Source of the DNA: Treponemataceae bacterium
Lineage (GTDB): Bacteria > Spirochaetota > Spirochaetia > Treponematales > Rectinemataceae
Length of the DNA stretch: 64,000 nucleotides
Assembly (NCBI GenBank): GCA_963677895.2
Contig: CAXXGJ010000006.1
Location: 64,001-128,000 of the forward strand
Reading direction: 5' to 3'
The translations under genes were made by a program, and so were the position numbers. The stretch's first letter is position 1. Each line of letters begins with the position of its first letter. Shown one piece after another: positions 21,895 through 46,596 of the stretch. The notes beneath the pieces were generated by a model. The model searched no databases. It worked only from the letters and a program-made list of their open reading frames with translations, and was not told the DNA's origin.

Positions 21895-22995
21895 TTAAGT
21901 CAATATCTCCACGGTTCCCAAAGAACTTAGTTTATAAAACCTCAACTTTCGAAGCCGTTCCTCCTCCGTGCAGAAGTGATACATCTCATGCTTCGACAAC
22001 AAGGTATACATTAACTCAAGCATGTGCCGGGCGACAGCCACAATCGCAATGCGCTTTCCTCGACGCTCGGCAATTCGATCGTATACAGCTCTGAAATGTA
22101 CTCCCATTGGAGAGCGGACCGCCGCCCATGCCGCCTGCACTAGAGCCCGCCTCAATGCTGGGCTTCCCTGTTTCGTAATATGCCCCATGTGGTGAATGGA
22201 GGTTCCAGAAAGCTCTACCCGAGGCACCATTCCCACGTAGTAGCTAACCTGGGCAGGATTCTCAAAACGGTCCTCCGTCCCTACAAATCCTAAGTAGGCG
22301 AGCGCCACTGTAGGCCCCACCCCGGGAATTGACAGGAGGATTTCTGCCTCCTTTTCCCGCTTCAGCAGGGCTTGGCGTACCTGTTCCTTGACGAGCACTC
22401 TCTGCGATTCTATCGCCGCGAGAATGACGCAGTATTGCTCGGCCAGCATGCGATAGATTCCCGTCATGCGCCCAAGGATCGCCATTCGCCCTTTCTCCGT
22501 TGCCAGATCCTTCTTGGTGATCTCCGTCATGCCATGCTCGACGCATGCCGCATGAAACCGATTTATGATCCCTGTTCGCTCCCGGTTGAGAAAGATCTGG
22601 TGGTTCGCAAGCCTCCGCGCCTCTTCATCTTCTTGGCTCGGCAGGTTTACCTCAGGCAGACATTCTTCTGCGGTTCCTTGCAGCACCCGGGCAAGCTTGA
22701 GCGCGTCTTCTTTATCCGTCTTCCTCATGGAGCTGTAGATGACCGCCAGTTTTGCTGAATGCAAAACCTTCACCCGCACTCCGTCGACCTGCGCAAGCCT
22801 TCGTGCAAGGGTGAACGACAGCGCCCCTGCCTCAAGCGCCACCACGTCCCCCGCTTCGAGTTTCCCCGCAAGCTCATCTCTTCCCTCTGCGTCCGTCGTC
22901 CCTCTCCAGCGAATGATCTTTTCCCCGGCATGCAGTACACAGGCTTCGTAGTGACGTTTGCCGAGGTCGATTCCTATGAATCGCCGTGCTTCCAT
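21895..22995 (-). CDS. IS110 transposase/recombinase
   Basis: FIGIDLGK, ALEAG, KTDKEDA (DEDD RuvC domain), SIPGVG, RF......Y.G.VP....SG, ITKQGS..LR..LVQAA, AIVAVARH. Confidence 0.95.
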   Translation of the reverse strand: MEARRFIGIDLGKRHYEACVLHAGEKIIRWRGTTDAEGRDELAGKLEAGDVVALEAGALSFTLARRLAQVDGVRVKVLHSAKLAVIYSSMRKTDKEDALKLARVLQGTAEECLPEVNLPSQEDEEARRLANHQIFLNRERTGIINRFHAACVEHGMTEITKKDLATEKGRMAILGRMTGIYRMLAEQYCVILAAIESQRVLVKEQVRQALLKREKEAEILLSIPGVGPTVALAYLGFVGTEDRFENPAQVSYYVGMVPRVELSGTSIHHMGHITKQGSPALRRALVQAAWAAVRSPMGVHFRAVYDRIAERRGKRIAIVAVARHMLELMYTLLSKHEMYHFCTEEERLRKLRFYKLSSLGTVEILT

Positions 22996-26454: not shown

Positions 26455-27096
26455 ATGATGAAATTCAGTAAAATCGTGCAAACCTTCGGGGATAGAGCCT
26501 GGTTTGACTTCGAGATGGTCCATCTTCTCTCGGGCGAGGCCTCAGCCTGCGTGCATACAGAGCTGTACCGATGGCGGGAATCGGGCAAACTGATCGAGCT
26601 TAGGCGAGGCTTGTTCGCGCTGGCCGAGCCTTGGAGACATTCGCCCGTCGATGGCGCCTGCCTGGCCGAAGCCTTGTATCCGCCCTCCTCTCTTTCGGGA
26701 GCCTGGGCCTTGCGGCGCTATGGGCTGCTTCCTAGTTGCGTCGTGGGTGGGGCTGAGGGCTGCGCGCGCCCGGAGTTCGACTTGGTGACGGCGCGCCCCG
26801 CTAAGATCTTCGAGAACCCCTTTGGCCGCTATTCCTACACCACCTTTCCCCGCGACCTGCTTTTCGGCACGAAGACCGAGATGATTGGCGGGAACAGGGT
26901 GCGGATGGCCCTTCCCGAGAAGGCGCTTCTGGACTACTGGTTCATCGAGGGCGGGGAATGGGACGAGGAGCGGATCGAGAACGCGGGCTTGAGAAGAGAG
27001 CCGCTGGATATGGAGAGGCTGGAGGCGCTTGCGGCGCGCGCGGGCCGGCCACGGCTCGCGCGCGCCACCGGAGCCTACCTGAGGGCAGCCCTATGA
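26455..27096 (+). CDS. AbiEi-like type IV toxin-antitoxin antitoxin / transcriptional regulator
   Basis: L.RW...GKLI.LRRGL, LY.PS.LS..WAL..YGL.P, A.PEKALLD. Confidence 0.8.
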   Translation: MMKFSKIVQTFGDRAWFDFEMVHLLSGEASACVHTELYRWRESGKLIELRRGLFALAEPWRHSPVDGACLAEALYPPSSLSGAWALRRYGLLPSCVVGGAEGCARPEFDLVTARPAKIFENPFGRYSYTTFPRDLLFGTKTEMIGGNRVRMALPEKALLDYWFIEGGEWDEERIENAGLRREPLDMERLEALAARAGRPRLARATGAYLRAAL

Positions 27097-27575
27097 TGCG
27101 GGAAGAAATCCTCGAGATAGCCGACATGGCCGAAACGCCTGAAGAGAAGCTTTGCGCGACACGAGCATGCATCCAGGCCGCGGCGCTTCGCTCGCTGCAC
27201 GAGCTGGGAGCCTTCGAAAAACTCTGCCTGACCGGAGAAAGCGCCCGCCATTTCGCCTCCGGAACGCCAGAATACATGACCGACCTCGAATTCGGGCTTG
27301 TGGACAAGAAGGGGTACAAACCCGAACAGTGGCTCTTCGCGGTCAAACGCCGGCTGCGTTTCATGGGACTGGACGCACGCATCGCCTTCGCGCGAAAAAC
27401 ATCCGTCCACTCAGGCTGGGTAAAGGTGACCGGCCTCCTCGCCGAGGAAGTCGGCTTCAGGATCGTCATAGATATCGCGCCAGTCGAGCCCGCGACCTGC
27501 AAGGTGAAACTAGTGGACATGGCGGGAGAGTGCTTCGGTATTCGGTATAGTAGCGATTTGGCGAGAGTATTATGA
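27093..27575 (+). CDS. Degenerate, truncated AbiEii-like nucleotidyltransferase
   Basis: ATGA overlap with abiEi; N-terminus R..IQ...LR.L...GAF..L, then GES...EYMTDLEF in place of GGT...RFSEDLDF; only 160 aa. Confidence 0.6.
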   Translation: MMREEILEIADMAETPEEKLCATRACIQAAALRSLHELGAFEKLCLTGESARHFASGTPEYMTDLEFGLVDKKGYKPEQWLFAVKRRLRFMGLDARIAFARKTSVHSGWVKVTGLLAEEVGFRIVIDIAPVEPATCKVKLVDMAGECFGIRYSSDLARVL

Positions 27576-27665
27576 TGAAGACTCTTGGGTAGCTAAAATT
27601 TTAGGCACGAATCAACATGTTTCATAGGTTGTCTGCATCAGGAAATACACTAGTCCCCACTATGA

Positions 27666-28646
27666 TCAACGTCTCACATGAATTTTGTATTGGAAACGCG
27701 TCGTGTTATTCGGATTCCGTATACTATCGATAATGACGACAATGACAATGACTAGTCCCGTGAGCACACGTTTCACCGGTTCAGATGCGCCCAACTGTGA
27801 TAGACCTGTCTCTAAGGCTACCATGATAATTGTTCCCAGGAAGCTTGACCATACATTCCCTTCCCCTCCCCTCAGACTGGTCCCACCCACAGCCACGGCA
27901 GCGATCACGTAAAGCTCAAGGCTTCCCCCAGTATTCGGGTCAACCGCCTCCATGCGCGCGCTTTCAAAGATCGCGGCTATTGCCACCAGCATCCCCGATA
28001 GGGCGAAGGTTGCTACCTTAATTTTCCCTGTAAAAACCCCCGAAAGATACATCGCTTCCTCGTTCGTTCCGATTCCGACTACATATCGGCCAAAAACCGT
28101 CGATCTGAGAATGTACTCGAAGAGGATTATCATCATGAGGGTGATAATGAAAGCAAGCGATACGCTGTTCAATACGATCGTGTTCAAGACTGAAAGTACT
28201 GATCCGAGATAAATGGTCCGGGAGCCGGAAAAAAGGTATGACATTCCCCTATATATCTCCATAGTGCCTAAAGTCACGATAAAAGGAGATGCGCGCCACT
28301 TGACAATGACAAGACCGTTTATCATTCCCAACACTATACCAAGCGCGATGGTAATAACGATGGCGATAGGCGTGGCCATGCCAAAATTGGTTATGGCCAC
28401 GGCAAGTGTGATCGAACAACATGCCATAATTGAGCCGACAGACAGATCGATGCAACCGACTAAGATCACGAAGGTCATTCCTGTCGCGACGATTGCGTTA
28501 CTCGCCACTTGATTGAGGATCGTGCTAAATGTCTGGATCGAACGATAAGGATTCTTTCCGGAACCTAGAAGCGACATAATGAGAAGTATCCCGATGGGAA
28601 AAAGCAGGAATTTAATATAGCTCATGTAAGTCTTTTTAATGTTCAT
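27666..28646 (-). CDS. Ribose-type ABC permease (copy 2, associated with the sensor genes)
   Basis: GMTFVIL...IDLSVG, FIVTLG, GR....IG.NEEA..LSG, ELYVIAAV.VGGTSL.GG.G. Confidence 0.9.
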   Translation of the reverse strand: MNIKKTYMSYIKFLLFPIGILLIMSLLGSGKNPYRSIQTFSTILNQVASNAIVATGMTFVILVGCIDLSVGSIMACCSITLAVAITNFGMATPIAIVITIALGIVLGMINGLVIVKWRASPFIVTLGTMEIYRGMSYLFSGSRTIYLGSVLSVLNTIVLNSVSLAFIITLMMIILFEYILRSTVFGRYVVGIGTNEEAMYLSGVFTGKIKVATFALSGMLVAIAAIFESARMEAVDPNTGGSLELYVIAAVAVGGTSLRGGEGNVWSSFLGTIIMVALETGLSQLGASEPVKRVLTGLVIVIVVIIDSIRNPNNTTRFQYKIHVRR

Positions 28647-29637
28647 TATTTTCGTTTTCCTTGAATACTTTAACATCGACGGGTGTTTCTCTGTCTTCCT
28701 GGAGGGTCCCTGTTCTTATAGCCTGCAAAGCACACTCTATCCCCTCGACGACAATCTTATCGGGATATTGTTCAGCAGTAGCAATTATCCGTTTCTCCTT
28801 GAGAATTTCGTTGACGGCCGTTATATTGTCGAATCCCACGATTTCAACGTTTTTTGCTACTTTACCGAGGGCTTTTATAGCGGCGAGCGCCCCAAGCGCC
28901 ATTGTATCATTGGCGCACGCAATTCCCCGTATATTAGGGTATTTTCTGAAAATGGCAGTGGTCGCAGTGTTGGCCTTTGTGATATCCCAGTCGCAGGGCT
29001 TAATCTCGACGATATTCATCCCGTAGTCTAGAAAAGCCTCTACAAAACCTTCCACCCGCTCTTTTGAATTGAAAGCTGTCGGAATACCTTCAAGGATCGC
29101 AACCTCTGAGCCTTTTTCAATTTTTTCAGCGAGCTTTGTGGCTACTTGCATAGCCGCGTAGCGGTTGTTAGGTCCGACAAAAGTGATAGAATGTTTTTTT
29201 TCTTTTAGTATTTCGGAATCCAACTGGTTATCTATATTTATTATAACTATCCCTTTTTCGATGGCTTTCGTGCATATCGGTATCAAGGCTTTCGAATCGG
29301 CTGGCGCTATAACTATAGCGTCAACGTTTTTCGCTATCATATTTTCAACAATATGAATCTGCCCTGAAATATCATTTTCATTCTTTATGCCGTTTACGAT
29401 CAAGCCATAGTCATCATGATGTTCGCGTTGATGTGCGGTAGCGCTCTGCCTCATGGTGATGAAGAAATCATTAGCCAACGATTTCATCACGATTGCAATA
29501 GTTGGTTTGTTTTCATTGTTGTTCTTTTCTGCTATATCACAACACAATAACAGGAAAATGGTGACTGCTATAACGATGACAAAGCGAGACAGCTTGTGCC
29601 CTTGTAGCATTCTTGTAGTATATTTTTTTCCCATCAT
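28636..29637 (-). CDS. Ribose-type sugar-binding protein (copy 2)
   Basis: Signal/anchor segment; VMKSLANDFF, IAPADS, FVGPNN, AND.MALGA, VGFD. Confidence 0.9.
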   Translation of the reverse strand: MMGKKYTTRMLQGHKLSRFVIVIAVTIFLLLCCDIAEKNNNENKPTIAIVMKSLANDFFITMRQSATAHQREHHDDYGLIVNGIKNENDISGQIHIVENMIAKNVDAIVIAPADSKALIPICTKAIEKGIVIINIDNQLDSEILKEKKHSITFVGPNNRYAAMQVATKLAEKIEKGSEVAILEGIPTAFNSKERVEGFVEAFLDYGMNIVEIKPCDWDITKANTATTAIFRKYPNIRGIACANDTMALGALAAIKALGKVAKNVEIVGFDNITAVNEILKEKRIIATAEQYPDKIVVEGIECALQAIRTGTLQEDRETPVDVKVFKENENNEH

Positions 29638-31511
29638 GACATTTTCTCTTCAGAGATATCCGAAGTTTTCTGATTTCCCGATATGTTACCATGCATATGT
29701 CTCAATAGAGGCAACTTTATGACCATGATAGTCCCCTCCTTTCCGGATTCGCATTCAATGATCCCTTGATGCGCTTCGATGATATGCTGGCAAATAGATA
29801 AGCCTAATCCGCTGTTGTTCCTGCTGTTTTTCGTACTAAAAAATGGATCAAATATCTTGTCTATTATCTCCACAGGAATACCTGGCCCATTATCCTTGAT
29901 CGCAATTTCCGCAATGTTCTTATCGAACACCGTCGACAATCGTATTTCTATTATGCCTTTGCTTAAGAATGATTCCATGCTGTTCTTTATTAGGTTAAGG
30001 AACACTTGTTTTAACCTGTTTTCATCACCGTTTATAAGTATTGCCTCTGTTGGACGATTCCATATTATTTCGATATCGTTCTTCATAAGAATGTTCTTCA
30101 TGAAAGACAGAAGGCTTTCAATCGTATCAGCCACATTAACTTCTTTATACGGGGTACTTTTTATTTTTGTAAAAGAAAGGAGATCCTTTATAATCTCCGA
30201 CACTCTGTTCAATTCATTTCGCACCTTGTTTATCTTAATACGGTTATCTTCATCGCTAACATGTCTATCCAGCAATTCCAGATAATTGATGCATATCCCT
30301 ATAGGGTTGTTTATCTCGTGGGCAACACTCGCAGCCAGTTCAGCCACCGAGGCAATCTTCTCCGTCCTAATGAGATAATCATTAAATAGTCTTTCCCTTG
30401 TGATATCCTCCATTATGATGATTGTTCCCCAGAAGGTTAACTCCCCGTCATTGAAAGGGTACGAAGCGATTCGATATACAATGCCTTTGTTGTTTGAGAC
30501 TTCTCTCCAGAATCCTTCCTTCTTTTTTTTGATATTTTCTATGATCTCCACCGCGATAGGCATCGATTCGGTATTGAATACTTCATCGACTGCTATATCA
30601 TGTACTTCTTTTTCTTCCTTTCCGAGCATCTTTAAGGCAGGATTATTTATTATATAGGTATTGCCTATAGCATCTAAAACAATAACTCCTAGAGGTATAT
30701 TCTTGATGACTGTTTCGTTGTACTTCTTAAGATAAAGGAGTTCTCGATTATTCTGGTTGAGTTCATCCCTCGTTAAGACGAATGAATACGTCATTTTGAT
30801 GAGCTTGCCGCGATCTAGATTTTCGATGTCCTCTGTTCCTGAGATGCGGCCTTTATTCATGATGGTCACACGGTCAGATATTGCGAATATTTCATCAAAG
30901 TTGTGAGAAATATAGATTGCCGATTTATTCTTCTGTTTGCATTCCGATAATATGCGATAAACCGTCTCCATCTCGACTGGAGTCAGTTTATTGGAAATTT
31001 CATCGAATATTATGATATCAGGATTAATTGATATAGCTTTCATGAGCTCAACCATGAGTTGTTTGTCCTCTGGTAAAGCCCCTAGAGGCATACGAATATC
31101 TATATCAATTCCGAAGTGCCGAAAAAGCTTTTCTGTTTCCTGCTCCATCCTCGATCGTGCCAACATTCCTAAAAAATTGAAACTCATCCTTCCAGAATTG
31201 ATATATTCAGTGGCGTTTAGCGTCGGTACTATGTTTGTATTTTGATAGACTGTAGCGATTCCCATCTCTAATGCCAATCGCGGGGTCAGATTTTCGTATA
31301 TCTTGCCTTTTATAAATATTTCACCTTTTGTCTTTTTTATCGCTCCGCTAATTATCTTTATCAATGTTGATTTGCCTGCCCGGTGTTCCCCTACCAAGGC
31401 ATGGGCTTCCCCGCGTTTCAATGAAAAATTGATACCTTTGATGACTTCTATACCATTATACTCCGCATGAATATCGCGCATTACGATCAATAATTCTTCG
31501 GGATCACACAT
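29634..31511 (-). CDS. Fusion of a single CUT2 ABC ATPase domain, a PAS domain and a histidine kinase
   Basis: Walker A GEHRAGKST, Q-loop TVYQ, Walker B IIIFDE, H-loop YISH; PAS (NIPLGVIVLD..G....IN..A); H-box AHEINNPI, N-box QVFLNLIKNS, DNGPGI, IFDPFFSTK, SGLGLSIC. One continuous 625-aa ORF. Confidence 0.9.
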   Translation of the reverse strand: MCDPEELLIVMRDIHAEYNGIEVIKGINFSLKRGEAHALVGEHRAGKSTLIKIISGAIKKTKGEIFIKGKIYENLTPRLALEMGIATVYQNTNIVPTLNATEYINSGRMSFNFLGMLARSRMEQETEKLFRHFGIDIDIRMPLGALPEDKQLMVELMKAISINPDIIIFDEISNKLTPVEMETVYRILSECKQKNKSAIYISHNFDEIFAISDRVTIMNKGRISGTEDIENLDRGKLIKMTYSFVLTRDELNQNNRELLYLKKYNETVIKNIPLGVIVLDAIGNTYIINNPALKMLGKEEKEVHDIAVDEVFNTESMPIAVEIIENIKKKKEGFWREVSNNKGIVYRIASYPFNDGELTFWGTIIIMEDITRERLFNDYLIRTEKIASVAELAASVAHEINNPIGICINYLELLDRHVSDEDNRIKINKVRNELNRVSEIIKDLLSFTKIKSTPYKEVNVADTIESLLSFMKNILMKNDIEIIWNRPTEAILINGDENRLKQVFLNLIKNSMESFLSKGIIEIRLSTVFDKNIAEIAIKDNGPGIPVEIIDKIFDPFFSTKNSRNNSGLGLSICQHIIEAHQGIIECESGKEGTIMVIKLPLLRHMHGNISGNQKTSDISEEKMS

Positions 31512-31517
31512 TGAAAC

Positions 31518-32858
31518 TCACATGCTTAATCGTTTCATTCGGTTGTAAAGCGTTTTTCTAGTCACGTTCAATATTTCTGCTGCTTTAATCTTTACACCTC
31601 CGCTTTTTGATAATGCATCGAGTATCATCTCTCTATTGATTTCATCAATTGCGTCGCTATATTCATCGTGATCGATATCGTTGATCTGAAGATACTGCGA
31701 TGGAAGATCCAATAAACCTATAACAGGACCATCAGAAAAAATGACTGCACGTTCTACGCAATTCTTCAATTCGCGTATGTTTCCCGGCCAGTTATGGTGC
31801 GCAAACAAATTATAGACTTCATCGCTTGCGCCGATAATATTTCTATGATGAAGTGATGAAAATTCCTCGATAAAATGATCCGTGAGAAGACGTACATCGC
31901 CAGGGCGATCTTTAAGTGGTGGTAGATCAAAGTTTATCACCGATAGTCGATAATACAAATCTTCCCTAAAGAGACTTTCTTTGATCATCTGGACTAAGTT
32001 TTTGTTTGTTGCAGCAATTATCCTAATATCGACGGAAATAGAACCGTTCCCTCCAACGCGTTCAAATGTTCTTTCCTGGAGCGCTTGAAGAATCTTTGCC
32101 TGAGCCGCGAGTGACAAGTCACCTACTTCATCGAGAAAGAGCGTCCCATAATTGGCTTGTTCGAATCTTCCAATCCGAGTCTTTTTTGCATCAGTAAATG
32201 CCCCTTTTTCATAGCCGAATAGCTCGCTCTCAATAAGAGTATCCGGAATTGCTGCACAATTTACATGGACGAAAGGCTGTGCAATTCGATGGCTGTAATG
32301 ATGGATAGCTTTCGCAACAAGCTCTTTCCCAGTCCCGCTTTCACCTGTAATGAGTACAGGCGTATCAACATCTGCCGCTTTGCGGATAAAGAGTTTCATA
32401 TCAGCGATTTTTGGCGCATTTGAGATGATTTGGTCTAGGCCGTCTTTCTGTAGCTTTGGCTGCGCGTTAACGGTTATTACAAGACGGATTTCTTCGATAA
32501 GCGCCCTTAAATCCAAGGGCTTTGAAAAGTAATTTACCGCACCATATTTCATAGCTCGTACAGCGGTATCCACGGATGGATATCCTGTGATCATGATCAC
32601 GGGTGTGTTGGGTGAATGCCGCTTAACAGATTTTAAAAGATCTATCCCACCAATCCCTGGCATCCGTATATCCATCAGTATAAGATCGATATGTTCCTTG
32701 GATAAAAGAGCTTCCAGCTCCCTTGGGTCATCTATGAAAGTAGCTCGGTACCCCTCGTCCAAGAGGATTTCTTTGATAGACAAGCACATTTCCAATTCGT
32801 CATCAATAATTAAAATATGCGCTTTCGCTAAATCCATATGATGCATAATGGCTACCAT
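31518..32858 (-). CDS. Sigma54-dependent NtrC-family response regulator
   Basis: Receiver (IIDD, MDIRMP, SKP), AAA+ GESGTGKE, ESELFG, GAFTDA, LFLDEV, WPGNIREL, C-terminal Fis HTH. Confidence 0.95.
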   Translation of the reverse strand: MVAIMHHMDLAKAHILIIDDELEMCLSIKEILLDEGYRATFIDDPRELEALLSKEHIDLILMDIRMPGIGGIDLLKSVKRHSPNTPVIMITGYPSVDTAVRAMKYGAVNYFSKPLDLRALIEEIRLVITVNAQPKLQKDGLDQIISNAPKIADMKLFIRKAADVDTPVLITGESGTGKELVAKAIHHYSHRIAQPFVHVNCAAIPDTLIESELFGYEKGAFTDAKKTRIGRFEQANYGTLFLDEVGDLSLAAQAKILQALQERTFERVGGNGSISVDIRIIAATNKNLVQMIKESLFREDLYYRLSVINFDLPPLKDRPGDVRLLTDHFIEEFSSLHHRNIIGASDEVYNLFAHHNWPGNIRELKNCVERAVIFSDGPVIGLLDLPSQYLQINDIDHDEYSDAIDEINREMILDALSKSGGVKIKAAEILNVTRKTLYNRMKRLSM

Positions 32859-33757
32859 GACTGGATATTTAATATTTCTTCACGTGTTGGTATAGAAACA
32901 CTTGCACCTTCGCGCGACACACAGAGAGATGCTGCTATTGTAGCTTCCTCGAGCGCCTTTTCAGGTGGTTCACCTCGAAGCTCTGCAGCGATAAAAAATC
33001 CTGTGAACGTATCGCCTGCAGCAGTCGTATCAACCACCCTAACGTTACGCGACGGGAATTCTATATAGGTCCCGTCAGCCCCCATATACGTTACACCTTC
33101 AGATCCGAGCGTCAATACGATATTGGTTAAAGGGTAAGCCGCATGCAATGTTTTCACCATCGCGTCGACAGCCGATGTATTAGAAATTGCCCGGGCTTCG
33201 ACTTCGTTGAGAATGAGGCAGTGGATGCGCTTTAAATCAATGCCTACAAGGCGCTTGTCAATCGGAGATGGATTTAAGTAGATGTATAGACCTCTTTCTA
33301 TCGCTTTTTCGATCGCATAGGGCAATTCGGATATTTCATTCTGAAATAGAACAGAATCCCCGACACCCCATCCTGATAGAAAGTTCTCAATATCTTCTCT
33401 TGTTATCTTCTGGTTAGCGCCTCCGAAAAGAACAATTGAATTCTGCCCATCCTCTTGTACCTGGATGAAAGCTTTCCCCGTAGGTGTTTCTGATTGTATG
33501 ATTTTTGTAGTATCGACACCTCTTCCTTGCAGCGCCAGAAGAACTGGTTCAGCGTCAGGGCCTATTTTCCCAGCATGAAACACATTAGCGCCTGCGCAAG
33601 CGAGAGCTATAGATTGGTTATTCCCTTTGCCGCCGATGTTCCTATAAAATTTCATGCAAGCTATGGTTTCGCCAGGTGCAACAAAATGAGGTACTAAAAA
33701 TACTTCATCAAAATTAATCGAACCAATATTTAGGATCCTGTTTATATTATTACTCAT
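32852..33757 (-). CDS. rbsK: Ribokinase (PfkB family)
   Basis: GSIN.D, GGKG.NQ, TG.AFIQV...GQNSI, QNE, NE.EA, DTTAAGDTF. Confidence 0.9.
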   Translation of the reverse strand: MSNNINRILNIGSINFDEVFLVPHFVAPGETIACMKFYRNIGGKGNNQSIALACAGANVFHAGKIGPDAEPVLLALQGRGVDTTKIIQSETPTGKAFIQVQEDGQNSIVLFGGANQKITREDIENFLSGWGVGDSVLFQNEISELPYAIEKAIERGLYIYLNPSPIDKRLVGIDLKRIHCLILNEVEARAISNTSAVDAMVKTLHAAYPLTNIVLTLGSEGVTYMGADGTYIEFPSRNVRVVDTTAAGDTFTGFFIAAELRGEPPEKALEEATIAASLCVSREGASVSIPTREEILNIQSW

Positions 33758-33839
33758 ATATTTATCCCATGCCCTTTCTCTGATTGGGGAGAGTAAAAGT
33801 ATCGATTAATTGGAGCGAAGAAATACTATGACCAAAAAA

Positions 33840-33868
33840 AGTATCATTCTCATTATAGTTTTTGTCAA
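33840..33868 (-). promoter_or_regulatory. Sigma70-type promoter for the rbsK-regulator-sensor operon
   Basis: TTGACA-17 bp-GATACT on the minus strand upstream of rbsK. Confidence 0.55.
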
Positions 33869-33934
33869 GCTTTATTGATGTATTCTCAATCGGCATTTTA
33901 GTAAACCTTGATTGGCCCTGATAAAGCCACATTA

Positions 33935-34915
33935 TCAATTATTCGATGCGAGCATCAACGAAAGTTTCGCCCTGTACGTATCGAGAATCACGGCTCCGAT
34001 AATGATAAAACCGGTTATCATTTGTCGCGCAAAATCACCTATTCCAAGCAGCAACAACCCGTTGTTCAGCACACCCATGATACAGGCGCCAAGAAAAGTG
34101 CCGACGAGCGAACCTTTGCCACCGCTCATGCTTGTTCCACCGATGACAGCGGCCGCAATTGCGTTCATATCGAAACCGTTCCCCAATATCGGACTGGCAA
34201 TATTGAGTCGTAGCATATACATTATTGCCGCGATTCCGACAGTTCCACCGCAAATAGCGAAAGCGAAGATCTTATACATGCCTGTATTATGCCCGGAGAG
34301 CCTAACTGATTCTTCGTTATTTCCAATAGCGTAAATAAATCGCCCGAAAACTGTCTTCTGAAGGACGAATATGCCGGCGATCACAATGAGCAGCGCGATG
34401 ATAAAAATATAAGGTATTCCAATGACGGCACCGCTCCCGAACTTATTGAAGGATGGAGGGAAACTGAAGATCGTCCTTGAATTACTGACCTGTAAGGCGG
34501 CGCCACGGGCGATATTCATCATTCCAAGCGTCACGATGAAAGGATGTATCTTCCAACGCACAGTGAAGAAACCATTAAATATACCGCACAACGTTCCAAC
34601 AATTATACTGGCGAGTACCGCCGCTGGTATACTTATTATAGAAGAAACACCGGGGATATTCATGATCAAGCCGGCAATGACTGAACATAGCGCAAGCACC
34701 GCGCCTACTGAAAGGTCGATACCGCCGAGAAGGATCACTAGGGTCATTCCAACCGAGATCACCGTGTTGATGCTTATTTGAGTTAAAATATTAGTAATAT
34801 TCAGCGATGTTGCGAAATTGGGCGCAAAAATGGAGAACAACAACGTAAGGGCGATTAACGCTACGCCGATGCCGGCTTCCCGCAAGAGAAAGTACAGTAT
34901 TTTTTTTGATTTCAT
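33935..34915 (-). CDS. rbsC: Ribose-type ABC permease (copy 1)
   Basis: GGIDLSVG, FIVTLGMM, GRFIYAIGNNEESVRLSG, IAAAVIGGTSMSGGKG. Confidence 0.9.
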   Translation of the reverse strand: MKSKKILYFLLREAGIGVALIALTLLFSIFAPNFATSLNITNILTQISINTVISVGMTLVILLGGIDLSVGAVLALCSVIAGLIMNIPGVSSIISIPAAVLASIIVGTLCGIFNGFFTVRWKIHPFIVTLGMMNIARGAALQVSNSRTIFSFPPSFNKFGSGAVIGIPYIFIIALLIVIAGIFVLQKTVFGRFIYAIGNNEESVRLSGHNTGMYKIFAFAICGGTVGIAAIMYMLRLNIASPILGNGFDMNAIAAAVIGGTSMSGGKGSLVGTFLGACIMGVLNNGLLLLGIGDFARQMITGFIIIGAVILDTYRAKLSLMLASNN

Positions 34916-36444
34916 GGTTTCTCCTTACTTCGTTTTTCACTATCGTCTATAAACGCTTTGTAGGCATAAAACAGCACCTTCTCTTGATCAAAATCCTTTC
35001 GTTCAAATTCGCCTGTTACGCTGTTATTCGAAAAGACAAGCACTCTATGGCAAAGTCCAAGAACTTCCGATAAATCCGAGGAAATAACAATAATTCCCTT
35101 CCCTGCCTTCGCTAATGCCCACAAGAGTAGGTAGATCTCGTACTTCGCCCCAACATCGATTCCGCGCGTTGGTTCGTCGAAAATCAGAATGCGTGCGTCG
35201 TTGAATAGCCATTTAGAGATGACGATTTTCTGCTGATTACCACCCGAGAGATTCCTCACTAACTGTGATGAAGATGGAGTCCGTATCGACAGCTCATCGA
35301 TATACTTTTGGGCAACTACCCGTTCTTCTCGCTTATTCATCAACCCGAACTTCGACACCTTAGTAGGCTGCGTTATGGTTATATTCGCCGTACAAGACAT
35401 GTCGAGAATCAGCCCTTGATTCTTCCGATCTTCAGTTAAGAGTCCTATCCCGTTCCGCACCGCGTCCTTCGGCGATTTTATTTTAAGCTCTTTTCCATCG
35501 AGCCATATCGTCCCAGAATCCTTCGGATCGGCGCCGAAAAGGGCGCGCATCGTTTCCGTGCGTCCCGACCCCACTAGACCGGCAATACCAAGAATTTCCC
35601 CTTTTTTCACGTCGAAGGAAACATCAGTCGCGCTGCCACGAAAACGGAGATTACGTACTTTTAAAAGAGTTTCTCCTACAACGCACTCAGGATCGAAAGG
35701 ATATTCGGAGTTCATATCCCTTCCGACCATTTTCTTGACAATTCCGGAAATATCGATATTGGAAACAAACGTCGTATCAACGACACTTCCGTTTCTCAGA
35801 ACGGTGATCCGGTCGCCGATCTCAAATATTTCTTTTAAACGGTGGGATATATAGATGATAGTCACACCTTCTTTTTTCAAGGTTTTTATAAGAACAAAGA
35901 GCCGATCTATTTCCCTGGATGTAAGCGTTGCTGTAGGTTCGTCAAGGATTATGATACGGCTCTCGTATGCCAAAGCTTTTGCAATTTCTATTAGCTGCAT
36001 TTGAGCTATACCGAGCATCTCCACTGGCGTGTGGGGATCGATAGAAAGTCCTATTTTATCGAGGATGACCTTGGCATCGGCATAGATTTTCTCATAATCA
36101 ACTATTCCATATTTGCGTGGAAGTCGTTCGAAAAAAATATTTTCCGCGATTGATAAATAAGGAAGGAGATTAAACTCTTGGTAGACAATCCTGATCCCAG
36201 CCCTAATAGCGTCCTGCGGTCCTCGAGGAACGAACGGTTTGTTATCAAGGTAGAGGACCCCGGAATCCGGTTTGTTAATTCCACAGATGACTTTCACCAG
36301 ACTGGACTTCCCCGCTCCATTCTCTCCGACGAGGATGTGCACTTCTCCCCGTTCGATATTCATATTAACATTGTTAAGCGCCATAACGCCGGGAAAACTT
36401 TTATATATCCCTTCCAACCTCAGTATGCTTCTACTGTGATCCAT
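34912..36444 (-). CDS. rbsA: Ribose-type ABC ATPase with two NBDs
   Basis: GENGAGKS, DEPTA; second half GLVGSGRTE, LSGGNQQK, DEPTRGIDVGAK. Confidence 0.93.
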   Translation of the reverse strand: MDHSRSILRLEGIYKSFPGVMALNNVNMNIERGEVHILVGENGAGKSSLVKVICGINKPDSGVLYLDNKPFVPRGPQDAIRAGIRIVYQEFNLLPYLSIAENIFFERLPRKYGIVDYEKIYADAKVILDKIGLSIDPHTPVEMLGIAQMQLIEIAKALAYESRIIILDEPTATLTSREIDRLFVLIKTLKKEGVTIIYISHRLKEIFEIGDRITVLRNGSVVDTTFVSNIDISGIVKKMVGRDMNSEYPFDPECVVGETLLKVRNLRFRGSATDVSFDVKKGEILGIAGLVGSGRTETMRALFGADPKDSGTIWLDGKELKIKSPKDAVRNGIGLLTEDRKNQGLILDMSCTANITITQPTKVSKFGLMNKREERVVAQKYIDELSIRTPSSSQLVRNLSGGNQQKIVISKWLFNDARILIFDEPTRGIDVGAKYEIYLLLWALAKAGKGIIVISSDLSEVLGLCHRVLVFSNNSVTGEFERKDFDQEKVLFYAYKAFIDDSEKRSKEKP

Positions 36445-36503
36445 ATCATCTCTTCTCTGGTTTTGATCCGCGTACCTGACAAGCGTCGCGTAAAAGATTA
36501 CAA

Positions 36504-36534
36504 AGGCGTCGCCGAATGAAATTCAACGACGCCT
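36504..36534 (-). terminator. Stem-loop after the binding-protein gene (partial terminator or mRNA stabiliser)
   Basis: Minus strand aggcgtcgttgaat-ttc-attcggcgacgcct forms a full stem with G-U pairs. Confidence 0.6.
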
Positions 36535-36553
36535 ATAAACGCAGTACGATTTT

Positions 36554-37513
36554 TTATTTTTTTAGATTATCGATAGTTATCAATTTAACTGGAGTCTTCT
36601 GCCAACCTGTAAGCGAATTTGCCTTGGCTCCCGTCTGAAGCAACTCAAGGCCGATTTTGATAGCATTCGCCGCAAGATCACCGCCAAATTGATCGACTGT
36701 TGCGAGCACTTTGCCCTGCTTGATCAGGTCCTGCACCGCCGCGATATTGTCGAATCCTACGATTTTTATGTCTTTGCGGCCGGCGGCTTCGATCGCGCGG
36801 GCGGCACCAAGCGCCATTGAGTCATTCGCACACATAATTCCCTTAATGTCGGGGTGAGCGGTGAGCAGATTGGTTACGACCGTGTTGGCTTCTTCCGTCT
36901 CCCAATGAGCAGTAGTCGAGGCTATAAGGTTGAGGCGACCTTTCTTGATCGAGCGAAGGAATCCTTCTTTTCGTTGTTTGGCATTGTCCGCGCCAGGCAT
37001 ACCCTCGATTATCACAACTTTACCACCAGCGCCGAGGCTCTTAGCCAAACAATCACCGACAAGTTCGGCACCTTCAGCATTATCGGGGCCAACGAAGAGG
37101 AAGTTTTCGGGCAGTCCCGCTTCCTTGAGAGCTTTTTTATCCAGCGTGACATCAATATTGATAACCGGGATGCCCGCGTTGATCGCTTTCTTCACCGATG
37201 CGACCATACCCACAGAATCGGAAGGCGCAATAACGATAAGGTCGACTTTTCTCGCGATGAAGTTGTCCATCGCAGCCACTTGAGTGTCGATATCGGTTTC
37301 GGAATTCATTCCTACTGGTATTAGGGTGAAGCTACCATCAGCTGCGGCAAATTTCCGCGCCCCTTCTTCCATAGTCTTGAAGAATTCATTCGCAAGCGAC
37401 TTCATCACGAGGCCAACCACGGGTTTCGCGCTCACACTGCTAACGGAAGCGATGAAAAGAATGAGAGAAAAAAGTACAACCTTGCCCAAGAATCCGTTAA
37501 TTTTTCTGTTCAT
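36554..37513 (-). CDS. rbsB: Ribose-type sugar-binding protein (copy 1)
   Basis: Signal peptide; VMKSLANEFF, FVGPDN, ANDSMALGA, VGFDNI. Confidence 0.88.
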   Translation of the reverse strand: MNRKINGFLGKVVLFSLILFIASVSSVSAKPVVGLVMKSLANEFFKTMEEGARKFAAADGSFTLIPVGMNSETDIDTQVAAMDNFIARKVDLIVIAPSDSVGMVASVKKAINAGIPVINIDVTLDKKALKEAGLPENFLFVGPDNAEGAELVGDCLAKSLGAGGKVVIIEGMPGADNAKQRKEGFLRSIKKGRLNLIASTTAHWETEEANTVVTNLLTAHPDIKGIMCANDSMALGAARAIEAAGRKDIKIVGFDNIAAVQDLIKQGKVLATVDQFGGDLAANAIKIGLELLQTGAKANSLTGWQKTPVKLITIDNLKK

Positions 37514-37514
37514 G

Positions 37515-38768
37515 TTATTCTCCTCTCGAGGGATCTATCAGTGCCGGGTAGACGATAGTGCTCCAAAATTTGTCTTCATCAATGAAGTTTTGAATTGCCG
37601 CTTTCCGCGATCCGATCGGGCCCGCATCCTTGGTGTATGCAGTGCTTCTACCGTAATCCTGAGTCATTTCAGCGTTCACATCGACATAGACACCAAACAT
37701 TTTTTGCGGGGTTCCGTCGGCAGGAATGGGGCTGTCGTTCCAGGAAAGAACGATTGTAGGGTCGATGATGTAACCAACGGCTAGAACATCCCAAATGTTA
37801 GAAGGTGCCTTATTCTTATTTTTAAGCAGGAAAAGGTCTCTGAGCCCAGGGTAGGTAGTTTCAAGCACTTTGTCATAAATGGCTTGTGGCATCCCATGGG
37901 TATTGTCGTTGGCTTCCAGCCCGGAGATCATTTGGTTCCCATATATTTTATATGACTCGGAATTCTTGTCACCCCACTGAGCACGGACGGAGATCTTGGC
38001 GGCGTCTGGATCGGCCCACCAGTTGAACTCGGCAGCGGCAGATGAATTCCCTTTCAAGTAAAATGAGCCTCCCATATAGACGATCTCTTTCACTTTCGAA
38101 GGCAGAGTAGGATCTTTCATGATCGCTCTCGCAATATTAGTCGCAGGGCCGATCGCTGCGATGGTCACTTCCCCTGGGTACTTGTTGACGGTGTTTACGA
38201 TAAAGTCAACAGCATCTGTGTTGCCTTCGGGATCGGGAGAAGTAGGTCCATACACGTATTTATAGGTGGGATCCTTGCCATAGTAGAATTTATACACATC
38301 TTGCCACTTGGCCATGGGGTCAGTGTCGATACCGGTGTTTTTTTCGGGGTATTGAGCCTTCCGGAGGTACCCTGCGTATCCTACAGGCCCGGTTATCGCC
38401 AGTTCTGCGCTCAACACTTCAGGAATGGCGCGACTGGAACGTATACCGTAGCGGCTGCCTTCATAAATAGGTACTTTCGAGCCAATGATTTCTAGTTGAC
38501 GAACGCCAGAGGAGACACCATTGGGCATAGAACGGTTCCCTGCAACGACAGTAACGCCAAGGAGTTCCGTTTCAGGGGATTGATCGAGGACAATCATGGC
38601 GATTCCGTCATCAAAGCACTCAACCATGTCTGTGTCGAGGATCACTTTTCGCGCAGAGGCCTTCTTCACTTGCCAGCTGGCTTCCTGAGCGCCAACCACG
38701 GATACAAAGCACAGCGCGATGATAAGGCAGAACGCCTTAGTCCAGAAGCCCTTCATCATTTTATTCAT
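37515..38768 (-). CDS. Nucleoside hydrolase (IUNH family) with an N-terminal signal peptide
   Basis: ILDTDMVECFDDG, AIGPATNIA, YMGG, AAEFNWWADPDAA; signal-like MNKMMKGFWTKAFCLIIALCFVSVVGA. Confidence 0.88.
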   Translation of the reverse strand: MNKMMKGFWTKAFCLIIALCFVSVVGAQEASWQVKKASARKVILDTDMVECFDDGIAMIVLDQSPETELLGVTVVAGNRSMPNGVSSGVRQLEIIGSKVPIYEGSRYGIRSSRAIPEVLSAELAITGPVGYAGYLRKAQYPEKNTGIDTDPMAKWQDVYKFYYGKDPTYKYVYGPTSPDPEGNTDAVDFIVNTVNKYPGEVTIAAIGPATNIARAIMKDPTLPSKVKEIVYMGGSFYLKGNSSAAAEFNWWADPDAAKISVRAQWGDKNSESYKIYGNQMISGLEANDNTHGMPQAIYDKVLETTYPGLRDLFLLKNKNKAPSNIWDVLAVGYIIDPTIVLSWNDSPIPADGTPQKMFGVYVDVNAEMTQDYGRSTAYTKDAGPIGSRKAAIQNFIDEDKFWSTIVYPALIDPSRGE

Positions 38769-38823
38769 ATGCCTTCCTTTGTATTGATCATGCGATCAAT
38801 GCTCATTGAGATACATTCTTAAT

Positions 38824-38839
38824 AGCAAAAGCCATGCCA
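38824..38839 (-). promoter_or_regulatory. Sigma54 (-24/-12) promoter
   Basis: TGGCAT-GGCTT-TTGCT versus consensus TGGCAC-N5-TTGCW, about 55 bp upstream of the hydrolase ATG. Confidence 0.8.
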
Positions 38840-38995
38840 GACGGATAGAATTCTATTATGAATAAGTGAACCGGTTTTCATTGAAGATTTGAGTCCTGAA
38901 ACGATCAAAAAACCATAAGCTTTAGTCAACCAGAAAGAGGTTGTTGCCGGAGCTAAACGGAAGAAAAATTTTTGATAAAATCCATGTATTTTTTT

Positions 38996-39033
38996 TTACC
39001 CACGTGAGTAATGAATGGGTAATTAGTTACACA
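38996..39033. promoter_or_regulatory. Candidate enhancer (UAS) sites for the NtrC-type regulator
   Basis: Two adjacent near-palindromes, TTACCCACGTGAGTAA and TGGGTAATTAGTTACACA, about 160-190 bp upstream of the sigma54 promoter. Confidence 0.5.
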
Positions 39034-39154
39034 ATCACGGAAACATCAATCGTAGACTTATAAAGCACTTCACATAGCATATTCTTCAGGAGTAAAACTA
39101 GTTTAGTACCGGTTAGGATATCATCGATAAGTAAGAATAGCGGGCAAAAGAGAA

Positions 39155-39410
39155 CAGATTCGCTTCAATAGTCACGGCATCGCGTCCACGAGGTGCCAGG
39201 ACAAAATCCATTTCATTCCCCTCCTTATCGACGCGATTATATTAGGTACGAATGGCGTTCCAAACGAAAGAATTCGAGCACATCCCAGGCTCAAAAGGCT
39301 TCCCTCCACTCCGAGTTGTCCCTATCGTCGCGCAGTTTGGAGAGTTAGAAGCAGGGAAACCCTACCGAAACAAACCGCTTCGTTCTGTCCCCATATCCAA
39401 GAAGATCCAT
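39155..39410 (-). pseudogene. Relic of an AAA_14/DUF4143 ATPase gene
   Basis: Manual translation gives EWREAF*AWDVLEFFRLER and, in another frame, DKEGNEMDFVLAPRGR...IEA; both resemble this family, with stops and a large internal deletion. Confidence 0.5.
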
Positions 39411-39699: not shown

Positions 39700-40974
39700 A
39701 TGCCTACTATTCAAACCTATACGGCTATCATCATCGGCGCTGGTCCCGCTGGCCTCTTCGCCGCCATTCGACTCGCCGAAACCATCGGCGGCGGCGAGGG
39801 CATCCTCATTCTCGAGCGCCGCGAGAAGCCCGCCCGCAAGCTTCTTCTCTCCGGCTCCGGCCAGTGCAACCTCACCCACGCGGGGGAAATCGCCGACTTC
39901 CTCGGCCGCTACAGCGGCGGAGTGAAGGCCGAATCGGCCGCCCGCTTCCTCAAGCCGGCCCTCTACGCCTTCACCAACGAGGAACTCCTCGCCTGGTTCA
40001 GCGCCAAGGGCATGGAATTCGAGACCGAGGATTCGGGCAAGATATTCCCCGCCGACCGCCGCGCCACCTCCGTTCTCAAGATTCTCCAGGATGAAGCCTA
40101 TCGCCTCGGCCTGCGCATCGTCGCGAATAGCCGCGTCAGCGGCATAAGCGTCTCCGAGGGCTTTCTTGTGCGGGTGGAGTCGGAAGCTTTCGAATATCGC
40201 GCCCCGATCGTCCTCATCGCCACGGGAGGGCTGTCCTACCCCAAGACCGGCAGCACGGGCGACGGCTACGCGCTCGCGGCCTCCCTTGGGCACCGCATCG
40301 TACCGCCCAGGCCGGCCCTCGCGCCCGTTTACATCAGGAATTTCGCGCTCAACCCTCTCGCGGGGCTTTCCTTCCATGACGCGGGCCTTTCGGTGCTGCG
40401 CGTGGGCAAACGCGTCTTCTCAGCCGAAGGCGATCTTCTCATAACCCACGAAGGCCTCTCGGGCCCTCTCATCCTCGACGCGTCGCGCCATATCGCGCCG
40501 GGCGACAGCCTCGAGGTCAATTTTGTCGATGTGACTATTGAGGAATTCCGGAACCGCCTCGACGCCGAGCTTAAAACCAACCCCCGGCGCCTGGTCCGCA
40601 CGGCCCTCGCCGATCTCGGCCTGACGAAAAACATGGCTGAACTATTCTGCGACCTTTCAGGCGTGACCAAGGAAGAAACCGCGGCCGCCCTTCCCCGCGC
40701 CAAGCGGGATGCTCTGTGCCGCTTCGCCTGCGCCCATCCCTTCTACGTGGCGCGCCTCGGCACGCTTGAGGTGGCCATGGTCACCGCGGGAGGCGTCGAT
40801 CTCGCCGAAGTGAATCCCGGCAGCATGGAGTCGCGCCTGGTCCCCGGCCTTTTCTTCGCGGGCGAGGTCCTGGACATCGACGGCGACACGGGCGGCTACA
40901 ACCTTCAGGCAGTCTTCTCGACCGGATCGCTCGCGGCCGAGGCTATGGCTAAAAAGCCGCGCGTCGATAACTAG
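39700..40974 (+). CDS. HI0933/YhiN(BaiN)-family flavoprotein
   Basis: IIGAGPAG, KLLLSGSGQCNLT, ATGGLSYPKTGSTGDGY, THEGLSGP, VTAGGV, GEVLDIDGDTGGYNLQ. Confidence 0.92.
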   Translation: MPTIQTYTAIIIGAGPAGLFAAIRLAETIGGGEGILILERREKPARKLLLSGSGQCNLTHAGEIADFLGRYSGGVKAESAARFLKPALYAFTNEELLAWFSAKGMEFETEDSGKIFPADRRATSVLKILQDEAYRLGLRIVANSRVSGISVSEGFLVRVESEAFEYRAPIVLIATGGLSYPKTGSTGDGYALAASLGHRIVPPRPALAPVYIRNFALNPLAGLSFHDAGLSVLRVGKRVFSAEGDLLITHEGLSGPLILDASRHIAPGDSLEVNFVDVTIEEFRNRLDAELKTNPRRLVRTALADLGLTKNMAELFCDLSGVTKEETAAALPRAKRDALCRFACAHPFYVARLGTLEVAMVTAGGVDLAEVNPGSMESRLVPGLFFAGEVLDIDGDTGGYNLQAVFSTGSLAAEAMAKKPRVDN

Positions 40975-42002
40975 GCGTAGTAGCGCGCGAGGTCGTAGGG
41001 CGGGAAGATACCCTTGTCGGTGACGATGCCGTCGCAGAGTTTGGGCGGGGTGATGTCGAAGGCGGGGTAGAAGCCGTGCACGCCCTGCATGGCGGTGCGG
41101 ACGCCCATGGCTTCGAGGACGTCGTTCTCGTCGCGCTCTTCGATCTTCACCGTGTCGATGGTGGGGTGCTGGCGGTTGGGCGAGCCCGTGCAGAAGTAGG
41201 GTATGCCCCAATAGCGCGCCGCGAGGGCGATCTGGAAGGTGCCGACCTTGTTGACGATGTGGCCGTCCATGCAGATGACGTCGGCGGCCGAGGTGAAGAC
41301 GTCGACGTGTTTGGCTTTCATGGTGTAGCCGGGCATGTTGTCGGTGATGACGGTGACGTCGAAGTCCATGTCGCGGACGACGCTGGCGGTGAGGCGGGCG
41401 CCCTGGAAGTAGGGTCTGGTCTCGGGGCAGATCACTTTGATGGTCTTGCCTCGGCTCCGGCATTCACGCAGCATCATGCCGACGATGGTTTCCGCGAAGC
41501 ACTGGGTCATGACGGTGCCGTCGTCGGGGAACTGGTCGACGAGGTATATCGTGCTCGCGGCGCTGCGGGCGTAGCGTTTGTTCACCGCGTCGATGGTGTG
41601 CTCGAAGACGGCCTTGTCGGGCGCCTTGCCGGCGGCTTTCGCCTCGATGGCCACCTTGGCGCAGGCTTCGGTGATCGTGGCCATTTTTTCGGCCGTGGTG
41701 GGGCGTGCGTGGGAGATTTCGAAGGATGCCTTGGCGATGCGCGAGGGGAAGCTGCCTTTGTCGTCGCTGTCTATGGCTTTGGCGGCGAGGGCCATGCCCA
41801 TGCCGGCGGCCACGTAGGGGCCTCCCGACTGGGTGACCATGGCTTTGATGGCCGCGATCACATCCGCGTAGGTTTTGCAGGTGACGTATTCGATCCTGGC
41901 GGGATAGACGCGGCGGTCGAGGATGCGCACCGCTTCGCCGTCGTACCAGGCGACGTTTTCGTACTTGAGCATGAAGGCGAGGTCTTTGTCCTGTCGTTCC
42001 AT
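40971..42002 (-). CDS. mtnA: Methylthioribose-1-phosphate isomerase (eIF2B-like)
   Basis: LDRR.YP, ARPT, ETRPYFQGARLTA, ITDNM, NKVGT, YPAFDITPP; divergent TQCFAET in place of THCN.G. Confidence 0.88.
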   Translation of the reverse strand: MERQDKDLAFMLKYENVAWYDGEAVRILDRRVYPARIEYVTCKTYADVIAAIKAMVTQSGGPYVAAGMGMALAAKAIDSDDKGSFPSRIAKASFEISHARPTTAEKMATITEACAKVAIEAKAAGKAPDKAVFEHTIDAVNKRYARSAASTIYLVDQFPDDGTVMTQCFAETIVGMMLRECRSRGKTIKVICPETRPYFQGARLTASVVRDMDFDVTVITDNMPGYTMKAKHVDVFTSAADVICMDGHIVNKVGTFQIALAARYWGIPYFCTGSPNRQHPTIDTVKIEERDENDVLEAMGVRTAMQGVHGFYPAFDITPPKLCDGIVTDKGIFPPYDLARYYA

Positions 42003-42071
42003 AATCGCTCCTTGAATATCGTCCGGAAAAAGCCGAGGCTCGCGGCCCCGGCGCCGCGGTTCCCCCGCGCG

Positions 42072-43957: not shown

Positions 43958-43977
43958 AGCTGCGTCCTTCCCCTTCC

Positions 43978-46499: not shown

Positions 46500-46596
46500 T
46501 CGTTACCCTTGCTCCGATGGATGGGCTTTGGGGGGCGGCCGCCGCGCGCGGCGGCCGCCCCCGGAGCCCCTTTGCTTCTGTACGTTGGCGCCGGGC

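Follow-up and report, generated by a model that had tools for sequence, protein, structure and literature searches.

A histidine kinase with half of a sugar-importer ATPase as its input domain in a Treponemataceae gene cluster, and its possible role in an ABC-type sugar receptor

What does half of a sugar-importer motor do at the front of a histidine kinase? The question was raised by a window of 64,000 nucleotides from a Treponemataceae bacterium (assembly GCA_963677895.2, contig CAXXGJ010000006.1, positions 64,001 to 128,000). At 29634–31511 on the minus strand, the window carries a single open reading frame (ORF) of 625 amino acids, in which an RbsA-type first nucleotide-binding domain (NBD1) from an ATP-binding cassette (ABC) importer is joined to PAS, HisKA and HATPase domains. 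A first-pass annotation of the window had proposed that this fusion, together with a binding protein and a permease of its own, forms a sensing complex in which sugar controls autophosphorylation. If this is true, an ABC importer here serves as the receptor by which sugar uptake is induced.

The fusion protein and its family

The Pfam domains of the fusion were ABC_tran (residues 25–172), PAS_9 (274–371), HisKA (390–452) and HATPase_c (495–602), with HisKA (PF00512) and HATPase (PF02518) both above cut-off. The protein is laid out as an NBD (about 5–245), a linker (242–273), the PAS domain, the phospho-acceptor H398 and the HATPase domain. Residues of about 5–250 resembled the N-terminal half of CUT2 ATPases. 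CUT2 ATPases have two tandem NBDs with LSGGNQQ in the second (NBD2); only one ABC_tran stretch was found in the fusion. No transmembrane (TM) helix was found, since the 19-residue Kyte–Doolittle mean peaked at 1.18. Pfam and Kyte–Doolittle results agreed with the first description of the ORF. By its domain content, the fusion is a soluble signalling kinase whose sole input domain is half a sugar-importer motor.

An assembly error joining two genes, or homologues lacking the fusion, had been named as findings that would overturn this description. Neither was seen. The region 27400–39200 lay on one contig with 0 differences in each of the runs X1 and X3, either of which could be the source sample. 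At least 95% of the fusion was spanned by 118 of the 119 best non-self hits, at 44–56% identity. An assembly join was thus ruled out. The AlphaFold2 monomer (mean predicted local distance difference test (pLDDT) 77.8; predicted template modelling score (pTM) 0.43) showed a complete NBD fold, a helical linker, the PAS domain, a long helix that leads on to the kinase core, and the ATPase domain. Linker residues 243–255 were of low confidence (pLDDT <50). In Foldseek, the NBD was similar to LptB and like domains (root-mean-square deviation 2.8) and the remainder to PAS-kinases; no solved structure combining an NBD with a PAS-kinase was found. Current databases label the homologues AtoS or "ATP-binding protein".

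Two homologue sets were used. The close set comprised 115 of 120 hits, aligned. The distant set comprised the 134 full-length fusions found by profile search among the best 150 clusters (50% identity), so the family has at least 134 relatives. Named homologues were mostly from Spirochaetota, plus Vecturithrix and a Spartobacteria bin. In the phylum sample, where only three candidates were scored for each genome, 14 of 401 genomes gave a match at 1e-100; in the family, 13 of 69 genomes did. In a quick tree of 79 domains, 39 fusion NBDs lay on one side of a branch (SH-aLRT 99). They grouped with NBD1 rows and apart (91) from NBD2 and half-size ATPases. The simplest reading of this tree is that the fusion NBDs arose once, from a CUT2 NBD1. 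Ranks 3–4 of the Atlas results were two Actinomycetota clusters (166 and 64 members, about 830–850 amino acids) with ABC_tran, GAF, HisKA and HATPase domains, of which the literature search found no description. These clusters are possibly independent, and the ABC-kinase design may have arisen more than once.

The motifs of the NBD had been presented as signs of rewiring. Walker A reads GEHRAGKST, as noted at first pass; though altered, it still conforms to GX4GK(S/T), and K47 was invariant among the 115 close homologues, as were Q90, D170, E171 and H203. The stretch after Walker B reads DEISNKL, confirming ISNKL in place of PT..L. The LSGGQ signature is absent, also as described. As a sign of rewiring, this loss was rejected: the RbsA of the window itself reads LGIAQ at the NBD1 signature position, and 47 RbsA NBD1 rows from the same loci showed no LSGG consensus. 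The RbsA NBD1 signature is described as degenerate, with Walker A and B intact (PMC11466899, PMC13739795). Since the signature is degenerate in both proteins, its absence from the fusion is inherited, not new.

Other changes were specific to the fusions. In the P-loop, H43 (100%) and R44 (97%) of the close set stood against N and G (both 100%) in the 47 RbsA NBD1 rows; in the D-loop, I172, S173 and K175 stood against P, T and A. A conserved C-terminal stretch differed as well. Among the distant members, H43 was found in 95/134 and K or R at 175 in 103/134, both near the phosphate site. R44 was considered as a family-wide arginine finger and rejected, as only 24/134 distant members have R and 88 keep G. 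The distant set retained the Walker A lysine in 131 members, the Q-loop in 108, the Walker B aspartate in 129, the glutamate in 120 and the H-switch in 81; an LSGG-like signature was found in 1/134. Because Walker A and B persist and the H-switch is often lost, selection appears to maintain ATP binding in the fusion NBD, and hydrolysis less so. A fusion homodimer would have no signature to complete either ATP site. Positions predicted to face a permease (I85, Y89–Q90, F105 and G107), which we take to correspond to those of MalK, were kept at 96–100% in the close set.

Residues 200–275 were the best-conserved part of the fusion (0.83, against 0.54 for PAS and 0.62–0.71 for the kinase) and contained no indel in the 115 homologues. 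The linker from Y242 to P273 was 31 residues long in all 106 testable close rows and in 112/134 distant members. H398 was present in 134/134 and N506 in 133/134. For comparison, 76 control kinase loci were used, namely an 80-locus genome-contig scan minus 4 fusions; these are ordinary kinases and not taxon-matched. Three of them (L005, L012 and L023) had adjoining CUT2 genes. Their kinases are membrane HAMP kinases with a sigma-54 activator, and they ranked 1–3 of 76 in likeness to the linker-PAS part of the fusion. Because of this ranking, the NBD is read as occupying the position of the transmembrane input on a related kinase core. L012 also has an additional binding protein immediately before its HAMP-PAS kinase.

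Several relatives showed variant gene structures. The genome of the window has a second fusion (L099:10295-13534, on contig C12 of G000), which reads GERRAGKS and has lost the H-switch. Its orthologues in the same genus are intact, but here a one-base difference, either a real frameshift or an assembly error, separates PAS from kinase. The fusion at L231:4957-6816 has neither the Walker A lysine nor the H-switch and retains the linker; its contig has two further fusion modules.

Gene cluster and sigma-54 control

All genes of the cluster lie on the minus strand, and the neighbours named at first pass (binding protein, permease, regulator and upstream complete importer) were all confirmed in place. 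The NtrC-type response regulator (31518–32858) has, by motifs and Pfam, a receiver with D63, a sigma-54 AAA+ domain with GAFTDA, and HTH_8. The fusion overlaps by ATGA with the translationally coupled gene of binding protein 2 (28636–29637; RbsB/AlsB-like), which is followed by permease 2 (27666–28676, start possibly at 28646; PF02653). This pair is an orphan, with no dedicated ATPase. On the other side of the regulator lies a ribokinase-like PfkB kinase (32852–33757; PF00294; TIGR02152 best match, below cut-off). The 177-bp gap before it contains a sigma-70-like site, TTGACA-17-GATACT (33840–33868), matching the consensus at 10/12 positions. As the region contains 31 sites of this kind where 24 are expected, the site counts as no more than a consensus match. 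This candidate promoter could drive the ribokinase, regulator, fusion, binding protein 2 and permease 2 genes apart from the target operon.

The complete importer (33935–37513) comprises permease 1 (33935–34915; PF02653), a two-NBD CUT2 ATPase (34912–36444; GENGAGKS in NBD1, LSGGNQQ in NBD2) and binding protein 1 (36554–37513; PF13407; RbsB best NCBIfam match). The first gene of this probable target operon is an IU-type nucleoside hydrolase (37515–38768; PF01156). A sigma-54 −24/−12 motif, TGGCAT-N5-TTGC, lies at 38825–38839, 57 bp before the hydrolase start, and is the probable target promoter. The earlier term "ribose-type" held as likeness to RbsB only, as both binding proteins of the window fell below the NCBIfam RbsB cut-off. 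The ribokinase-like and nucleoside hydrolase neighbours suggest ribose or a nucleoside as the ligand.

Conservation of this neighbourhood was investigated with 121 fusion genes. Dereplication at 90% identity, with removal of one of the two halves of a frameshifted gene, left 87 loci. From the metagenomes, the set took the best 80 of 158 loci, found by motif, and it is biased towards the clade of the window. A sigma-54 activator lay directly upstream of the fusion in 74 of 74 testable loci, three of these by tblastn. GAFTDA, not GAFTGA, was the commonest activator form (51/100 rows). CUT2 genes were found within 7 kb in 75/87 loci and in 33 of the 34 well-flanked ones, against 3/76 control kinase loci and 0/16 other kinase hits in the same genome; among the 18 kinase hits of that genome, a CUT2 permease was near just the two fusion genes. 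The linkage proposed at first pass was thereby borne out.

The −24/−12 motif preceded 59 of 74 importer groups, 35 of them with a perfect match. In the controls it was found before the activator in 7/70 regions (0 perfect), on the opposite strand in 6/74 and in 4% of shuffles. Because the motif precedes importers far more often than activators, the importer is the likely target of the fusion and activator, in the window via the promoter at 38825–38839. Within the window alone there was no enrichment (9 matches, 8.3 expected), and no outstanding operator candidate was found upstream of this promoter. Among importers of the same genome, the motif was found before 1 of 12 fusion-unlinked groups; the same anchor missed both fusion-linked groups too, which makes this a weak control. 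This genome has two rpoN genes (G000 C2:196638-197123 and C18:581595-582068), with a listed contamination of 5.5%. At L004, L136 and L172 the whole activator-fusion-importer module stands in tandem repeats, and at L004 and L136 each importer has its own −24/−12 motif.

A private binding protein and permease had been claimed for the fusion. As a family rule this was rejected, since 23/34 well-flanked loci hold one permease and 32/34 a normal ATPase; full-length neighbouring ATPases carry LSGGNQQK in 56/58 cases. Clear orphan pairs were found only in the window, L120, L231 and L194, the last being a pair of a second kind beside a fusion. For the window itself the claim probably holds. An orthologous importer (57–77% identity) was found at five loci. 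At three of them (window, L120, L231) it was accompanied by a fusion, a −24/−12 motif and an ATPase-less pair (3/3); the L231 fusion has only 24% identity in the NBD. In L238 and L243, from genomes without the fusion, it had neither motif nor pair (0/2); the L243 importer has a LacI repressor. Because the pair follows the fusion in this way, the private pair at the window locus is probably real; the tracking over three against two loci is suggestive. The subfamily of the pair has its own ATPase elsewhere (L139, L234). In a search of 401 genomes at 1e-55, permease 2 was found in the window only.

In six fusion loci, a 426-amino-acid protein (as at L137:5991-7271), with no Pfam match at 1e-5 and no NCBIfam match at 1e-10, is encoded between binding protein and ATPase; in L220–L223 an unnamed gene of similar size takes this position.

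Readings of the input domain

The most probable answer to the opening question, with somewhat better than even confidence, is that a dimer of the kinase binds to a permease dimer and there senses the sugar-loaded binding protein. The input of the fusion homodimer would be a pair of ATP-binding ABC domains that hydrolyse slowly or not at all. Taking the position of RbsA, these domains would engage a CUT2 permease dimer at its coupling helices. Sugar-loaded binding protein would shift the permease, both NBDs would move, and the helical linker of fixed length would relay this movement through the PAS dimer to the kinase core, so that sugar turns the kinase on. H398 would then phosphorylate D63 of the regulator, and the phospho-regulator would open the promoter at 38825–38839 for nucleoside hydrolase and importer. 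In the window, the receptor would most likely consist of binding protein 2 and permease 2, expressed from the sigma-70-like promoter inside the cluster. In most other members of the family, the kinase would make use of the permease and binding protein that belong to the single importer under its control.

The proposed complex was modelled as the NBD with two copies of permease 2. The docking prediction scored 0.52, while the best of three controls scored 0.00; runs agreed in at least 88% of contacts and partner pLDDT was at least 77. The docking mark was reached by 116/157 solved and 2/215 mismatched pairs, and passes at 0.60 or below comprised 18 solved pairs and both mismatches. The prediction gives weak support to docking of the NBD on the permease-2 dimer. 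In the Protein Data Bank (PDB) copy searched, no sequence relative of a CUT2 permease was found at E 0.01 and no full-length CUT2 ATPase at E 1e-30.

Co-divergence was investigated in 26 single-importer loci; loci with two fusions, two permeases, or split or truncated genes were left out. NBD distances followed those of the kinase in the same protein (0.86), and across kinase, PAS and activator the correlations ranged over 0.73–0.86. The correlation was 0.18 for the binding protein and 0.18 for RbsA (partial 0.17, p 0.05). One kinase module adjoins XylF-like, RhaS-like and RbsB-like binding proteins at different loci, which shows that it has moved among these importer classes. Such transfer is easier to reconcile with a generic docking site than with a kinase that has its own sugar pocket. 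Because the module adjoins different classes without tracking them, sugar specificity seems to lie outside the kinase.

Several results weigh against docking on a permease. NBD distances did not track those of the adjacent permease (Spearman 0.04; partial 0.11, p 0.07), although even permease and RbsA correlated at only 0.42, so that the power of the test is limited. A private, co-evolving interface should co-diverge, and the lack of co-divergence speaks against one. Because most loci have no private permease, the kinase must there compete with a covalently paired RbsA, and in 2/34 well-flanked loci no permease was found within 7 kb. The docking score may be explained by general NBD-permease likeness. 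The close clade shows no variation at any of the five catalytic residues, a conservation that a pure pseudo-ATPase would not need. Finally, the 3/3 versus 0/2 split of the orphan pair is small (one-sided p 0.1, calculated by hand), and the loci are kin. The sensing complex of the first-pass annotation is thus favoured by the linkage of family, importer and −24/−12 motif, the fixed linker, the pair tracking and, weakly, by docking; its private pair did not hold as a rule.

The absence of NBD-permease co-divergence would suit a cytoplasmic sensor, in which the NBD or PAS binds a nucleotide, an imported sugar or a sugar phosphate without contacting a permease, and binding protein 2 and permease 2 borrow RbsA. 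The PAS domain and the family-specific H43 and K/R175 beside the phosphate site point the same way. This explanation is unlikely, as it accounts neither for the near-constant CUT2 partner nor for one conserved module serving different importer classes, and leaves the low PAS conservation and the missing orphan pair where the fusion is missing unexplained.

The invariant K47, Q90, D170, E171 and H203 could also serve a hybrid site, formed by pairing of the fusion NBD with the signature-bearing NBD2 of RbsA, or with a half-size ATPase, on the working importer; the kinase would then report turnover. A normal ATPase with LSGGNQQK does adjoin in nearly all loci. Yet both RbsA NBDs are on one chain, H203 is kept in just 81/134 distant members, the D-loop proline is replaced, and the partial correlation of NBD with RbsA is weak. 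We consider such a flux sensor improbable.

The odds are poorer for a fusion NBD dimer that energises transport through permease 2 and signals while cycling. Its catalytic residues are retained in the clade of the window, permease 2 has no other dedicated ATPase, and binding protein 2 keeps the invariant residues of its alignment; against this, an LSGG-like signature was found in a single distant member, and the normal ATPase is almost never lost. It is hardly credible that the NBD serves as a passive anchor or is a relic, or that misassembly produced the ORF, despite the uncertain model at 243–255, its pTM and the distant members lacking Walker A residues (as at L231), given the spanning contigs, the Walker A lysine in 131/134 and the fixed linker length.

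Docking on a permease can be extended to a receptor class of three parts: binding protein, permease dimer and kinase-fused NBD dimer. Transport would be off, and the alternating-access movement would be wired to the coiled coil of the kinase. Kinase and regulator would form a plug-in for any CUT2 permease, which shares a working importer or, as here, owns a non-transporting copy with its own promoter. This extension is tentative, with slightly less than an even chance.

Relation to known systems and further observations

In PstSCAB-PhoU-PhoR and UhpC-UhpB, a kinase receives the signal of an external solute from an importer or from a copy of one with little transport activity. These are separate proteins, with PhoU as adaptor or a major facilitator superfamily (MFS) fold, and we know of no NBD-kinase fusion among them. 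BceAB-BceS/BceR is similar in that an ABC transporter is required for a kinase to induce the transporter's own genes (PMC3023708). As described there, the intramembrane kinase BceS is a protein of its own and the resistance transporter BceAB is intact, whereas the fusion is a soluble protein with the NBD on its own chain, and it acts via a sigma-54 activator for a binding-protein-dependent sugar importer. The intramembrane-sensing kinase and the BceB-type permease with a large outer loop given as Bce-like features (PMC3023708) have no counterpart here: the fusion has no TM helix and the permease is PF02653.

The SLC5/STAC kinases CbrA, CrbS and RpuS likewise combine a transporter part and a histidine kinase in one chain, and the kinase induces a different uptake system (PMC9100948). 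In that account the fused part is a membrane symporter domain attached via STAC; here it is a cytoplasmic ABC motor domain, and no STAC or SLC5 Pfam match was found in the fusion. For MalK-MalT of E. coli, the state of the importer ATPase is described as controlling importer transcription, with an effector part C-terminal to the NBD; unlike the fusion, MalK is there a working motor that sequesters a separate activator, with no kinase or phosphorylation (PMC6906923). In XylFII-LytS, a dedicated sugar-binding protein feeds a kinase that induces the neighbouring sugar importer, and LytS is reported to contact the binding protein by its own outer domain and TM helices (PMC8050422). Since the fusion has neither, the permease would have to bridge the membrane. 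L005, L012 and L023 resemble the conventional XylFII-LytS layout, with a PAS-kinase core related to that of the fusion. The NBD itself resembles the NBD1 of RbsA as described for CUT2 ATPases (intact Walker A and B, degenerate signature; PMC11466899, PMC13739795). The differences are the replacement of NBD2 by a PAS-kinase, N-G by H-R or H-G in the P-loop, and PT by IS.K in the D-loop.

The claim that no characterised system has this architecture stood: the literature search, which covered few subscription papers and no supplements, where a domain-architecture table could list it, yielded no description of an NBD-kinase fusion. Transporter-coupled kinases are already known; a proven non-transporting ABC receptor would approach a new class. 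Signalling from ABC transporter to kinase, as in Bce and Pst, is difficult to dissect because sensor and motor are separate, transient partners. If docking on a permease is true, the coupling here is through a covalent link, and one NBD, a linker of 31 residues and a PAS-kinase core are its only parts, so that single mutations can uncouple ATP binding, hydrolysis, transport and signalling. The PDB copy searched contains no CUT2 permease relative, which would make a structure informative in two respects. If the module reads any CUT2 permease, it could be a chassis for sugar biosensors with specificity set by the binding protein.

The guanine-cytosine (GC) content of the cluster (27666–38768) was 39–50%, against 55–62% in the flanks, and an IS110 transposase lies nearby at 21895–22995. 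Because of these two features, the cluster was probably acquired as a block. Directly after the cluster, an AbiEi/AbiEii-like pair was detected by PADLOC at 26455–27575 (+), with a short AbiEii-like gene (205 amino acids). A third CUT2 importer lies at 40971–47679 (−) with an IF-2B-family isomerase; genes resembling methylthioribose kinase and class II aldolase were recognised there by eye as well. This cluster likely serves methylthioribose or 5-deoxyribose salvage.

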